Shown here: positions 12,720 to 24,168 of the stretch, one piece after another | How positions within the stretch are numbered: the first letter of the stretch is position 1 | Layout: each line of letters begins with the position of its first letter | NCBI GenBank assembly: GCA_002863065.1 | Contig: PKDL01000412.1 | Span: 1 to 54,056 of the forward strand | DNA length: 54,056 bases | Source: Pseudomonadota bacterium | Lineage (GTDB): Bacteria; Myxococcota_A; UBA9042; GCA-2863065 | Direction: 5' to 3' | Program-made: the position numbers and the translations under genes | The notes under the pieces: generated by a model | Told to the model about the DNA's origin: nothing | Databases searched by the model: none | What the model saw: the letters and a program-made list of their open reading frames with translations, nothing else

Positions 12720-13380
12720 GAATCTCGTGCCGCATTACCTTGGCCGGCCGCACCATATGAAGCTGAAATCAAATTCTTCGTCCAAACCGTAGCCTCGGTA
12801 TACATGTCCCTTGGGGAGGTGTCCCGAGACTATTCAGAGGTAATCGCGTGCGATGCCGTATACGAACCGGGAGACAAGCAAAGTGTTCCCGCAGACCGGC
12901 GGCCATGACGCGGGAACGGTTTCATCGGGTACGCCGTAGCGGTGTACCATCTATGGCCTTCGGCTTTCGCGGGCGTCACCCATTTTGCTTGCCACACGAT
13001 TGAAATACCTGGGACCAAGCCAGTCTTGTGCGCGGTATTTATTGTATTTTGTAAGGGAGGTTGGTTCGGCTCCCGGCCGGCACATGACCTGCTTAAACTT
13101 ACGCCAGGGATGCGGTACGGGGATGGAGGCCCCCACATCATAAGCTACGTATGAGCATCCACGGATCTCGATTATTCATGAACCAATCAAGCGTGAGGTC
13201 GTCACTCATTGGTAGAGGCAGCCGAGTCTCTGTCGGTCTAAGCCATATAGTAGGCTCAACTGACCCGCACGGTTTCTATCCAGTGCAGCAGCCACAGAGA
13301 CTCACTCGTTCGATACTTAGTTGAGCATGCCGCATGCTTTAGTACCATGTGGTGAAGAGATCAGGCTGATCCAGCCCGTA
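12720..13380. ncRNA. Candidate large structured non-coding RNA (unassigned)
   Basis: About 690 bp with no convincing ORF. Many 7-10 bp helices, including two crossing (pseudoknot) arrangements at 12875-12991 and 13224-13326. G-U wobbles slightly favour the + strand. Confidence 0.4.
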
Positions 13381-13430: not shown

Positions 13431-14084
13431 ATGAGACTAACTATCCTATCGATGTGGTTCCTTAGTTTATTGGCACTGTGCGTTGCGGTCGGTTGTAGTC
13501 CGACGAAAGCGGCCCCTCCAGCGCTGGCATCACCACCCGTCGAGACGGACAAGGCACCCATACAAGGCGAGTCTAATCGGCGCATCGACGAGTCAGTGGT
13601 TGTTCCAGTCACTAACGCAGGCGGTGGTAGCGCGGCAACACAAGACGGCGGGTCATGTCTTGGTCTACCCCCGCTGAAGACGGATCCATCAAACGCACGT
13701 TCGGCCGTACCGCCGGAGCGCCGGAACATTGAAGGTAATACCTTGCAGACATGTTCCCTATCGCCGCTTACTGGTTGGTTTAGGGATGGGCTCTGCCGCA
13801 CTGATGACCGAGATCGCGGAATTCATGTGGTCTGCGCATCCGTCAATGAAGCGTTTTTGACGTTTACCAAGGAGCGAGGCAATGATCTTTCCACCCCCAA
13901 ACCGAAATACGGCTTTCCCGGACTGAAGCCAGGTGACCGCTGGTGCCTTTGTGCGGCCAGGTGGTACGAAGCACAACGCGCTGGCAAGGCACCCTCGGTG
14001 GTGTTAGACGCAACGCATGAGAAAGCACTCACTGTCGTGCCTTTGGATATCCTTCGGAAGAATCGAAGCGTGAACAAAAAGTAA
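13431..14084 (+). CDS. DUF2237-family protein with N-terminal lipoprotein signal and Pro/Ser-rich linker
   Basis: C-terminal GNTLQTCSLSPLTGWFRDGLC..HVVCA..GNDLSTP..FPGLKPGDRWCLCAARW..ATHEKAL is the DUF2237 signature. N-terminus MRLTILSMWFLSLLALCVAVG|C. Start trimmed to ATG 13431. Confidence 0.8.
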   Translation: MRLTILSMWFLSLLALCVAVGCSPTKAAPPALASPPVETDKAPIQGESNRRIDESVVVPVTNAGGGSAATQDGGSCLGLPPLKTDPSNARSAVPPERRNIEGNTLQTCSLSPLTGWFRDGLCRTDDRDRGIHVVCASVNEAFLTFTKERGNDLSTPKPKYGFPGLKPGDRWCLCAARWYEAQRAGKAPSVVLDATHEKALTVVPLDILRKNRSVNKK

Positions 14085-14094
14085 GGTATTAAAT

Positions 14095-14413
14095 AAGGAT
14101 CCCCGAGAGTTGCGAGTTGCAAGAGCCTCACGGCTGGAGCATCGCGCCGCGTCGGTGAATAGCGCGGCCTCTCGGGGTCGGTGGTCACTGGGTACTCCAG
14201 AAGTAATCCACCCGTGTCTATCTAACGACTAGACGTTCTAAAGTGTGACCACCTCACCTGTCACCGATATAAATAGATACACTGGATCACCTCCTTTTCT
14301 GCGCGCGTTTGTTTTGATGGCGGGACCCACCTCCCACCCTGGCGAACCACCCGCGGTCAGCGGCCGGCCAGGTCGCCCTTGATCGATTGGGCTTGGTTAG
14401 AGCCCGTGGCAAC
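14095..14413 (-). ncRNA. Candidate structured small RNA / small-peptide mRNA
   Basis: Has its own sigma70-like promoter, nested helices (CCCCGAGAG/CTCTCGGGG, GGTGGTCAC/GTGACCACC, SD-sequestering stem) and an internal 14-codon ORF. Confidence 0.5.
14238..14282 (-). CDS. Putative 14-aa peptide MYLFISVTGEVVTL
   Basis: Minus strand reads AGAAAAGGAGGTGATCCA GTG TAT CTA TTT ATA TCG GTG ACA GGT GAG GTG GTC ACA CTT TAG. GGAGG lies 7 nt before the GTG. Below the ORF-track length cutoff. Confidence 0.45.
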   Translation of the reverse strand: MYLFISVTGEVVTL

Positions 14414-14419
14414 TATTTC

Positions 14420-14447
14420 AGTGTAACCTTGAATGAGCGGGTTGCAA
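14420..14447 (-). promoter_or_regulatory. sigma70-type promoter
   Basis: Minus strand TTGCAA-N16-TACACT; predicted TSS near 14413. Confidence 0.5.
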
Positions 14448-14500: not shown

Positions 14501-16096
14501 TTAGCCGTGGAGTGTTAGCCACCAGGTGATCGGGGGAATTATTACAGCGAGCGTGTAAATAAACAGAAATATCATTGTCTGCACTATCGGGAGCGGTAAT
14601 AGATTCCGCCGCCATTCCGTCGCCTCTACCACAGCCAATGCCGTTGGAAACTGTAGGCTGTGGCCGTGCCGGTGCAGCATATGTGATGCATATGTTCGGA
14701 AGCGTGATTCTGATCGTGCTGGTGGCTTACGCCTGATGTCATCTGCCAGTTGTGCCACCTTATGCTGTCCTGCTGCTACTAGGAGGCCTGCAATAAACGC
14801 GATCCACACGATCGGCTGTTCAAACCACAGGCCGATAAGCAGCAGGGATGTAAACGACAACAAACGAAATGCGCTTTCTAGCCCGGGGTACCTCGAAAAG
14901 AGGAGCAAATTCAGCACGTGCCCCCCATCAAGTGGTAGCACCGGGGCTAGGTTCAGCCAATTTATCGCTACTAAAAGCGTCCAACCCAAGCTGATTACTT
15001 GGTAATCGAGTAATGTGCCATCCAAGATCCACGGGAGAGTTATTCCGGCCACCATGAGGCCCGGCAACGGCCCCATTAGGGCAACAAACACCCGCTCTGC
15101 GCTACTGCTGTCTTTTTTCTGGCCGATGGCGGCCGCCCCAAAGAAGGGAAGAAAGAAGACGGATGCCTCGGAGTGCCCCGTGATGCGCATGGCTATCACG
15201 TGTCCGAGCTCATGGAGCAGTAGAACGCTCAAGAAAAGAACGACCTGCCACAGTGGGAACCAGAAGGAAAAAGAGAGACCGGCGAGGCACATGCTGGTTG
15301 TCGCTAACACAATAGATGACGAGCGTTTCCGTCGTGGGCGTACGCGATGGCAGTAGCGTTCGAGCGCATCGCCGTACGCATCCTCGATGGCGGACAAGGA
15401 GTAGTCTTGCACTTTCTTTGGCAAGTTAGGTGTAGCCTGCTGCGTGCTCGTGCGCTCGGCTCGAAGCATTGCCCACGCACCTCTCCATGTGGGGCGCAAA
15501 GTTGACTTGGGCTCCGATAGTGACTCGATAGCTCCGCTTTCCTCTGCTAACCGCAGTGCGTTTTTTGCACTGGAGTCGATACGGCTCAGGACCACCTGAA
15601 TGTCTCGCGGTGCATTGAGTGGTCCACGTTCTCGGTGAAGGTCAACCTGTTGTCTAACCGACCAGTGATTCAGTATGAGTAGTTCCGAGTCTGGTTGCGG
15701 TGGCCAGCGTGCATGCGCACGGACACTCTGTGTCTCTAACAAATAACCATTAGATTCCCAGGACAAGAGTGAGACGGATACAGGTCGGTGGACTCCGGGA
15801 AGAGGTGCGAGCTGAATATGGGCCCAGATTCCATCTGGGTGGTAGGCGAAGAGACTCAGTTCTTCATGTGACGTTTCCGACACGAGTGAGTAAGGAGAAG
15901 ATACCCATGTGGGCGCCGCAAATCCGAGTGTTGCAAGCTCTCGGTAAACCGGTGCGAAGAGGATTGCTTCTGCCTGTGATTCGGCGGGAGATTCACGTAT
16001 CTGATGAACGGTCGGCCGAATAATGTATGTACGTACTGACCGGAGTTGGAATACAAGAAGCGCTACGGGGACGAGAACGATTGCAGCCCATATCAT
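14501..16096 (-). CDS. Site-2 protease (M50 family) with large N-terminal domain
   Basis: LLLHELGH zinc motif, FLPFFGAA, GPLPG and NLAPVLPLDGG in a multi-TM C-half; about 270 aa of unassigned N-terminal region. Confidence 0.85.
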   Translation of the reverse strand: MIWAAIVLVPVALLVFQLRSVRTYIIRPTVHQIRESPAESQAEAILFAPVYRELATLGFAAPTWVSSPYSLVSETSHEELSLFAYHPDGIWAHIQLAPLPGVHRPVSVSLLSWESNGYLLETQSVRAHARWPPQPDSELLILNHWSVRQQVDLHRERGPLNAPRDIQVVLSRIDSSAKNALRLAEESGAIESLSEPKSTLRPTWRGAWAMLRAERTSTQQATPNLPKKVQDYSLSAIEDAYGDALERYCHRVRPRRKRSSSIVLATTSMCLAGLSFSFWFPLWQVVLFLSVLLLHELGHVIAMRITGHSEASVFFLPFFGAAAIGQKKDSSSAERVFVALMGPLPGLMVAGITLPWILDGTLLDYQVISLGWTLLVAINWLNLAPVLPLDGGHVLNLLLFSRYPGLESAFRLLSFTSLLLIGLWFEQPIVWIAFIAGLLVAAGQHKVAQLADDIRRKPPARSESRFRTYASHMLHRHGHSLQFPTALAVVEATEWRRNLLPLPIVQTMIFLFIYTLAVIIPPITWWLTLHG

Positions 16097-22752: not shown

Positions 22753-22829
22753 GGGTCCATAGCTCAGTAGGTTAGAGCAGGCGGCTCATAACCGCTCGGT
22801 CCCAGGTTCGAGTCCTGGTGGGCCTACCA
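22753..22829 (+). tRNA. tRNA with CAT anticodon, most likely tRNA-Ile2 (lysidine-modified)
   Basis: GGGTCCA..TAGCTCAGTAGGTTAGAGC..GGCGG CTCATAA CCGCT..CCAGGTTCGAGTCCTGG TGGGCCT A CCA: full cloverleaf with encoded CCA. The anticodon arm resembles E. coli Ile2 rather than elongator or initiator Met. Confidence 0.93.
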
Positions 22830-23783: not shown

Positions 23784-24156
23784 TTCAGTGCGACAAATGG
23801 TCGCTGGACTCAAGGGTCTGGAGGAAAGTCCGGGCTTCGCAGGGCAGGGTGCTGGATAACGTCCAGCGAGGGTGACCTCAGAGATAGTGCCACAGAAAGT
23901 ATACCGCGCTCCGCCCGAGAGGGCCTGGGCGTAAGGTCGAACGCGTGGGGTAAGAGCCCACGGGCTGATACGGTGACGTGTTGGTCGGTAAACCTCACTC
24001 GAAGCAAGGTCGAGCAGGAAGCGCTTGAGGGTTGCCCGCCCAAGCTTCCGGGTGACTGCAAGAGGCGTCCAGCAATGGACGTCCCAGATGAATGGCCATT
24101 ACCTCACTGTCAGGTGACTGTGGTGGGGAACAGAACCCGGCTTATGGTGCACTGAA
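23784..24156 (+). ncRNA. rnpB: RNase P RNA (type A)
   Basis: GAGGAAAGTCCGGGC, AGTGCCACAGAAA, GGGTAAGAGCCC, GGTAAACC..C..GAAGCAAG, CCAGATGAATG and ACAGAACCCGGCTTAT in the correct order; P1 TTCAGTGC/GCACTGAA. Confidence 0.97.
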
Positions 24157-24168
24157 TGCTGGTCGGAC

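Follow-up and report, generated by a model that had tools for sequence, protein, structure and literature searches.

A probable ribosome-docking mini-mRNA of a marine diderm bacterium is related to the actinobacterial RNA Ms_IGR-5

An already described class of RNAs is complementary to the whole 16S rRNA 3' tail; its members bind 30S ribosomal subunits tightly and are barely translated. In Bradyrhizobiaceae, rreB is a 165-nt stand-alone mRNA with a 14-codon open reading frame (ORF) (Hahn et al., RNA Biol 2017, PMC5711450). As reported, rreB binds 30S subunits and is poorly translated, its stability depends on the start codon, and only the 5'-most bases of its Shine-Dalgarno (SD) sequence are predicted to be single-stranded (PMC5711450). 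In the same report, rreR of Rhodobacterales has 18 codons, and analogues occur in further alpha-proteobacteria (PMC5711450). For Ms_IGR-5 (Rfam RF02471), a small RNA (sRNA) family of Actinobacteria, expression is documented for two species of Streptomyces (PMC8079986, PMC8780764), and ribosome profiling (Ribo-seq) showed it to be ribosome-protected in Mycobacterium abscessus and M. smegmatis (PMC4974804). We found no literature linking Ms_IGR-5 to rre or noting an ORF in Ms_IGR-5. In this study, we analyzed a 54,056-nt stretch of marine bacterial DNA (contig PKDL01000412.1 of assembly GCA_002863065.1, hereafter the window) and an RNA element on its minus strand, from about 14406 to about 14089. 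With a rough probability of 70%, we read this element as a stand-alone gene for an rre-type ribosome-docking mini-mRNA of about 320 nt, the core of which is a divergent Ms_IGR-5 homologue.

Based on reading of the sequence, minus-strand positions 14297..14282, AAAGGAGGTGATCCAG, are complementary to the 3' tail of 16S rRNA. The 15-mer AAGGAGGTGATCCAG (14296..14282) had been singled out in a preliminary description of the locus as a perfect 16S complement overlapping a GTG codon, and it occurs exactly once in the whole 54 kb, where arithmetic gives a chance expectation of about 1e-4 for an exact 15-mer in 2 x 54 kb. This extended SD, AAAGGAGGUGAUCCAG (14282..14297, minus strand), contains the 15-nt complement of the universal CUGGAUCACCUCCUU, and the addition of A14297 extends it to 16 nt if the 16S rRNA terminates in ...CCUCCUUU. 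The common bacterial 16S tail, CUGGAUCACCUCCUUU, gives a 16-nt complement in the window, and the host's own 16S 3' end lies outside it. The complementarity ahead of the starts of the window's 29 long ORFs reaches at most 6 nt, and the SD is far beyond ordinary length. G14282 is both the final base of the complement and the base that opens the GTG initiation codon (14282..14280). The same holds in L150, a syntenic, distant relative in which the SD box is unchanged. The GTG opens a mini-ORF of 14 codons (14238..14282, minus strand) that encodes the peptide MYLFISVTGEVVTL and ends in a TAG at 14240..14238.

In a permissive Rfam scan, RF02471 matched minus-strand positions 14304..14095 over its full-length model (1-184) with a score of 29.1 bits, under the gathering score of 45, and an E-value of 3.6e-5 to 1.2e-4. 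The core RNA (14093..14304, minus strand) shares with Ms_IGR-5 the SD box, the block GACAnGUGAGGUGG, the CACC..CCCCGAG segment, and the terminator. Two covariance models were additionally used, R1, from the building of which the window was excluded, and R2, from which everything through the SD was cut away. R1 gave 44.3 bits (E 8e-10) and R2 gave 28.7 bits (E 9.5e-6), each as its sole match in the window, with E-values that are rough because of a shortened calibration. Since R2 matches without the SD, the resemblance exceeds a shared 16S complementarity, and the RNA bodies are homologous. A pattern on the non-SD blocks retrieved at least 120 genome loci, all from Mycobacteriales or other Actinomycetota, and no non-actinobacterial relatives were among the genome matches listed. 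A second pattern retrieved 23 metagenome loci, all high in G+C, and nine metagenome representatives scored 66-104 bits, all above the Rfam gathering score. Structure and extended SD are both retained in homologues, the combination to which the preliminary description had pointed. The helices covary and the mini-ORF is kept, but a known family, RF02471, matches, and the element is thus not new in kind. The plus strand was also considered as a decayed 3' fragment of 16S rRNA and rejected, since the match spans only 15 nt, Rfam detects no small-subunit rRNA similarity, and the minus-strand family homology explains the box.

On an alignment of 33 diverse members from which the window was excluded (A1), RNAalifold predicted three helices, H1, H2, and H3. 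Family H1 forms between GGACAYGU and GGUGRUCC, the latter being the SD's 3' half; it leaves the 5' half unpaired and places the start codon in the loop. In the window, the pairing partner is the 5' part of the near-invariant block GACAGGUGAGGUGG (14249..14262, minus strand), which lies within the ORF and is supported by the Rfam alignment, RNAalifold, and the model alignment. Family H2 pairs GGUGGCUGC with GCAGYCACC. In the window, H2 (14180..14253, minus strand) joins GGUGGUCAC (14253..14245) to GUGACCACC (14188..14180), a pairing recognized earlier as one of a loop with downstream sequence; the stop codon and a variable central domain are both enclosed by this helix, which is present in the minimum-energy fold of the core. 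H3 (14101..14177, minus strand) is a terminator-like branched hairpin, in which CCCCGAGAG (14177..14169) pairs with CUCUCGGGG (14109..14101) before the U-rich tail AUCCUUAUUUAAU. This is the 9-bp closing hairpin noted at the outset, and its family pairs covary. H2 and H3 are fully formed in the window, and H1 has six of eight pairs. Pairs were counted over 57 model-aligned sequences, 55 of them full-length. Family pairing reached 98.6% of cells, with compensatory double changes at 15 pairs; none of 500 shuffles equalled this, and slid controls paired in 34-49% of cells. Compensatory changes affect four of nine family pairs in H2 (99.2% of cells paired) and 10 of 11 in H3. Collectively, the alignments indicate that the family shares covarying helices H2 and H3 and a near-invariant, SD-masking hairpin, H1.

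An in-frame mini-ORF passes through the conserved block in 140 of the 142 family members. Its start codons occupy one aligned position (TTG in 102, ATG in 24, and GTG in 14), its stop codons are TAG (123), TGA (16), and TAA (1), and its length is 12 codons in 137 members and 14 in the window. The family peptide consensus is M-x-x-x-[W/R]-T-[C/R/S/G]-E-V-[A/V]-x-x, and the T-x-E-V core is common to Actinobacteria and the window, where it reads TGEV. Across the family, residues 2-5 are freely variable, the final three codons covary with the partner strand of H2, and the conserved codons coincide with H1 and H2. Moreover, no wobble position in the first 11 codons differs between the window and L150, although the neighboring protease is 56% identical, which points to selection at the RNA level and not at the peptide level. 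Together with the variable residues 2-5, the H2-covarying last codons suggest that selection maintains the RNA structure and a frame of constant length that can be translated, more than the peptide. The ORF contains a second SD-like word, GAGGUGG, and the stop codon lies exactly 8 nt downstream of it in all 142 members and in the window. In the corresponding window stretch (14249..14238), with the stop codon placed in the A site, the distance of GAGGUGG from the P site is that of a normal SD. The peptide strings had no match in the literature. A 41-amino-acid (aa) ORF at 14412..14287, which ends in the SD, and two plus-strand ORFs are broken and not conserved in L150.

The element lies between an M50-type protease gene (14501..16096, minus strand), whose stop codon is 95 nt upstream of it, and a DUF2237 gene (13728..14084, plus strand), which is convergent with both the protease gene and the element. 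In the strains X10 and X12, the flanking genes differ from the window by 8-9%, and a single difference falls in 14082..14379. In the lineage X14/X36, seven substitutions and two indels are located in the leader at 14300..14342 and none in 14091..14299. In L150, the M50 protein is 56% identical, and the RNA is found in the corresponding gap (R1 34.1 bits, E 1.5e-7). Nucleotide identity between the window and L150 is 91% in the RNA core and 76% in the leader, compared with 47% downstream of the RNA, 61% in the M50 gene, and 70% in the DUF2237 gene; 60 consecutive bases, from AAAAGGAGG through GGUGG, are identical. Purifying selection acts far more strongly on the RNA than on the genes to either side.

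A transcript, expected from the preliminary description, does exist: the core is present in metatranscriptomes of marine origin, in at least 20 runs belonging to a dozen studies. The ten runs with contigs on the core gave short contigs of 151-362 nt, confined to 13986..14406, and no RNA contig in these ten runs covered the M50 gene. The RNA contigs of X25 and X28 both stop at 14406, and the X25 end is joined to the Illumina read-1 adapter, which indicates a physical RNA end and, if the library was dUTP-stranded, a minus-strand RNA. This end is 14 nt downstream of the -10 element of a putative sigma-70-type promoter (14420..14447, minus strand), composed of a -35 TTGCAA (14447..14442), a 16-nt spacer, and a -10 TACACT (14425..14420). 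The proposed promoter sequence is thus present with an RNA end just downstream, but it matches eight of 12 consensus positions and falls under the cut-off of the promoter scan. The 14406 end would fit TACACT if a few 5' bases were lost in library preparation. Both hexamers are unchanged in X10 and X12, where the spacer and discriminator are altered; in L150, TACACT is identical, and the -35 element is TTGCGT. The 3' ends of the RNA contigs lie at 14089-14097 in X25 and X26 and extend to 14061/14045 in X13, X15, and X27. Beyond 14061, the X13 and X15 contigs carry 10 plus-strand bases, GGGCGAAAAA, unlike the window, which reflect either strain variation at the 3' end of DUF2237 or an artefact of the assembly. 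As a crude measure of expression, the contig depth of the core was 52.6 in X13 and 15.6 in X15 versus 360.6 and 96.4 for the RNase P RNA contigs of the respective runs. The RNase P RNA contig in X13 is 97% identical to that of the window, which indicates that a close relative of the window organism was transcriptionally active there. With its own putative promoter, a covarying terminator helix, and contigs limited to the element, the transcript is independent of its neighbors, as is an RNA of the rre kind. Collectively, the small RNA is real, abundant, very strongly conserved, and transcribed in many marine samples.

Upstream of the core, the RNA has a lineage-specific structured 5' leader (14305..14406, minus strand), with the RNA 5' end at 14406. 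The leader comprises a hairpin, GGGCU-CUAACCA-AGCCC (14405..14389), and an SD-like box, CAGGGUGGGAGGUGGGUCCCGCC (14341..14319). The hairpin has two compensatory pairs in L150 (GGGCU/AGCCC to GAACU/AGUUC). The 23-nt box is identical in L150 (7528..7550), where the flanking genes are 61-70% identical, and it contains a further SD-like word, GGGAGGUGGGUCC. No comparable leader was found in the actinobacterial relatives, whose alignments start about 10 nt before GGAGG. The leader box resembles the actinobacterial SD box GGGAGGUGGUCC in a second, degenerate version and can pair with the 3' strand of H2 in the full-length fold.

Folding also provides an alternative partner for the SD. GGAGGUGAUCC (14294..14284) can pair with GGAUUACUUCU (14209..14199) in 11 pairs, three of which are G-U, and the stem can be extended by GUGU/ACAC and AUCUA/UAGAU; GGAUUACUUCU (14199..14209, minus strand) can thereby bury the whole SD. 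These pairings, which the preliminary description had proposed, exist and are used in the full-length minimum-energy fold. The predicted folding energy is -86.5 kcal/mol for the core (z = -3.97 vs shuffles) and -131.4 kcal/mol for the full-length RNA (z = -3.24 vs shuffles). In the core alone, H2 and H3 are predicted to form with the SD partly paired; with the leader, the leader box pairs with the H2 3' strand, and the SD is buried by the GGAUUACUUCU stem. In L150, an A-to-G change in the GGAUUACUUCU partner keeps the pair as U-G, and the AUCUA/UAGAU extension is broken. On these models, two mutually exclusive conformers are plausible in the window lineage. The conformational switch suggested earlier is likewise plausible in silico, given that the full-length fold uses the SD-burying stem and the covarying family fold uses GGUGGUCAC:GUGACCACC.

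Of the three readings in the preliminary description, an RNA that holds 30S subunits fits best; such holding was measured for rreB, which has the same ribosome-binding site (RBS) layout. By analogy with rreB, the free 16S 3' tail of a 30S subunit would seize the accessible 5' part of the over-long SD and then zip through the part that is masked intramolecularly. The mask would be provided by H1 according to the family fold, or by the GGAUUACUUCU stem and the leader in the window lineage. Such zipping may dock the 30S subunit very tightly on the RNA, and the long duplex combined with a GTG start would make clearance and translation of the mini-ORF inefficient. A ribosome translating the 14 codons would have to unwind H1 and H2; ribosome engagement would thus set the conformation of the RNA and probably its lifetime. 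In this mechanism, which is modeled on rreB, the interaction between RNA and ribosome is more likely to matter than the peptide.

Several points weigh against this interpretation. The docking of 30S subunits and the weak translation are transferred from rreB, which is not a sequence homologue: the CC2171 score is 13.2 against a required 75 bits, and R1 fails to detect a true CC2171. In addition, overexpression of rreB caused no growth phenotype (PMC5711450). The length of the complement is deduced from the general 16S tail, the host's own 3' end being outside the window. The isolated SD is predicted to be mostly paired, which makes its accessibility uncertain. H1 is invariant and never covaries, which leaves conservation as its only backing. 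Moreover, the relatives used for R1 and R2 were gathered by patterns that fix the GACANGUGAGGUGG block, and the invariance of this block is consequently overstated; the independent Rfam consensus shows most of it in capitals. Finally, the contigs are unstranded, and the strand is inferred from homology, promoter and terminator logic, and one adapter orientation.

Four other explanations were weighed. The gene might make a 14-aa peptide (12 aa in Actinobacteria) with a target of its own, with the RNA features only tuning expression. The ORF, start, and stop are kept in 140 of 142 members despite different start and stop codons, the T-x-E-V core extends from Actinobacteria to the window, and the RreB and RreR peptides are conserved within clades (PMC5711450). 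However, residues 2-5 vary freely, and the L150 peptide, MYLFISVTGEVDTL, has Asp in place of Val12. The conserved codons are fixed even at wobble positions and coincide with H1 and H2, the final three covary with the H2 partner strand, and RreB and RreR are unstructured and gave no phenotype on overproduction (PMC5711450), which makes a peptide function unlikely. We regard as rather improbable a trans-acting base-pairing sRNA or sponge, in which the boxes AAGGAGG, GAGGUGG, and GGGAGGUGGG would target pyrimidine-rich RNAs other than 16S rRNA and the mini-ORF would be incidental. Three SD-like boxes in a single RNA would suit such a role, as would an abundant, stable-looking RNA in a family that Rfam classes as sRNA. 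Nevertheless, the complement spans the exact 16S tail including GAUCCAG, which other targets would not need, the identity of the start codon alternates at a fixed position, and ribosome footprints have been reported (PMC4974804).

A cis-acting element, whether the M50 gene's 3' untranslated region (UTR), an attenuator of the leader-peptide type, or a regulator antisense to the convergent DUF2237 gene, is very unlikely. The RNA contigs stop at 14406 with none over the M50 gene, no same-strand gene follows the element that an attenuator could regulate, and actinobacterial homologues lie behind unrelated genes (aminotransferase IV, ABC transporter). In its favor, the element follows the M50 stop codon on the same strand at a distance of 95 nt, some contigs enter the DUF2237 3' end by 24-40 nt, and the synteny is maintained in L150. 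The type I toxin-like mRNA suggested in the preliminary description is hardly credible. Like the mRNAs of hok, tisB, and fst, the RNA is structured, with a masked RBS and a very short ORF, and the over-long SD, buried start, and short hydrophobic peptide recall such toxins, the last in the window lineage only. Type I toxin peptides typically have about 20-60 aa. In contrast, the 14-aa peptide is far shorter: it is smaller than every known type I toxin and not long enough to cross a membrane. Nor is it conserved as hydrophobic: Val12 is replaced by Asp in L150, and the 12-aa peptides of actinobacterial homologues carry charged residues, for example, MIASWTCEVAAR. Conservation is instead at the RNA level, L150 does not preserve the antisense (plus-strand) ORFs, Rfam gives no match to a toxin or antitoxin RNA, and the gene is kept at one syntenic chromosomal site of housekeeping type.

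The stand-alone, ribosome-docking mini-mRNA thus remains the favored explanation. Regarding its host, the G+C content of the window near the locus is 50-58%, and that of the host is 53%. The window encodes a TonB-dependent outer-membrane receptor, which indicates a diderm (Gram-negative-type) host and not an actinobacterium. Elsewhere in the window, an RNase P RNA of class A is located at 23785..24159 (279.8 bits) and a tRNA gene at 22753..22826. A gap of about 650 nt without a convincing ORF (12720..13380) separates a ubiE-like gene from DUF2237; at the matching position in L150, a 205-aa gene without a Pfam match is called.

These results extend the actinobacterial family Ms_IGR-5 to a marine bacterium of Gram-negative type, where it has a true homologue in both sequence and structure; the family is therefore either far older or more mobile than its name would suggest. 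Because this homologue has the exact RBS layout of alpha-proteobacterial rre, it joins two literatures that we did not find connected in searchable papers. Furthermore, expression in many ocean metatranscriptomes and a place among the most conserved stretches of its neighborhood argue for an important role, and the tractable relatives in M. smegmatis and Streptomyces make the function testable. A wider proposal, unlikely when all its parts are taken jointly, is that Ms_IGR-5, rreB/rreR, CC2171, and the window element all branch from a single ancient and nearly pan-bacterial class of mini-mRNAs that are tethered to ribosomes and buffer the free 30S pool or report on it. The Ms_IGR-5 branch might then be a two-site tether, in which a 30S subunit docks on the giant SD, translates about 12 codons, and is recaptured by GAGGUGG; at termination, the subunit would remain on the RNA and could re-initiate. 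Such a ribosome 'treadmill' or parking site could control decay through its occupancy.

Compared with the rre mRNAs, the window element is likewise a stand-alone RNA with its own promoter and terminator. In rreB and rreR, perfect complementarity to the 16S 3' end spans 16-17 nt and has as its last base the G of GTG. The window's complement likewise ends in this G, with a length of 15 nt against the universal CUGGAUCACCUCCUU or of 16 nt if the tail is ...CCUCCUUU; the rreB and rreR mini-ORFs of 14 and 18 codons, respectively, are like that of the window, and a hairpin contains the 3' part of the SD. The CC2171 consensus (RF01867) begins with GAAAGGAGGUGAUCCAGUGUCU, which equals the window's box plus GTG, and the window's RBS shares its first 19 nt, AAAGGAGGUGAUCCAGUGU, with this consensus. 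In contrast, past the start codon, CC2171/rre has no likeness to the window RNA in sequence or structure. The window RNA is approximately twice as long as rreB, with a structured leader of about 100 nt bearing a second SD-like box, and its host is not an alpha-proteobacterium. When applied to the window, the CC2171 model aligned at the RBS alone, and its 13.2 bits fell short of the gathering score of 75. A true CC2171 from Methylobacterium (L148, 84 bits) has the same RBS, an unrelated body, and a 24-codon ORF and is not matched by R1. Among plasmids, BLAST matches to the RBS lay mostly inside dnaE2 on Rhizobiaceae plasmids, at 22 of 23 nt within coding sequence, and were set aside as coincidence; a Novosphingobium match (L149) is not an rre RNA. 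The dnaE2 coding sequence, for an error-prone polymerase, matches AGGAGGTGATCCAGTGTATCTAT at 22 of 23 nt on an Agrobacterium Ti plasmid (L146) and a Cereibacter plasmid (L147), and this internal SD-like word recurs among the listed Agrobacterium and Rhizobium plasmid matches, probably by coincidence.

Compared with Ms_IGR-5, the window element shares helices H1, H2, and H3, a mini-ORF whose stop codon lies 8 nt after GAGGUGG, and a stand-alone site before a convergent gene. At the actinobacterial loci, the next gene is convergent in six of the seven with a callable downstream gene; in the Nocardia and Rhodococcus loci that were checked, it is a THAP4/nitrobindin-like haem-binding gene. Among the loci examined (L001-L120), Ms_IGR-5 directly follows an aminotransferase class IV gene in mycobacteria or an ABC transporter gene in Rhodococcus. 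This variation of neighbors indicates a stand-alone gene. Ms_IGR-5 members mostly start with TTG or ATG 11-12 nt past GGAGG and have 12 codons, whereas the window has a GTG abutting the complement and 14 codons. Similarly, most Mycobacteriales members have 9 nt of exact 16S complementarity (17 with G-U pairs), whereas the window matches the common tail over an exact 16 nt. The host of the window RNA is a marine diderm, and the window RNA adds the long 5' leader. The rre-style junction GAUCCAGUG is placed on an Ms_IGR-5 body in the window, in L139, and in L136, the metagenome relative closest in layout, whose Pfam domains gave no indication of a phylum. Collectively, because CC2171 aligns at the RBS alone and R1 misses the Methylobacterium CC2171, the window element is of the rre kind by architecture and an Ms_IGR-5 RNA by sequence homology.

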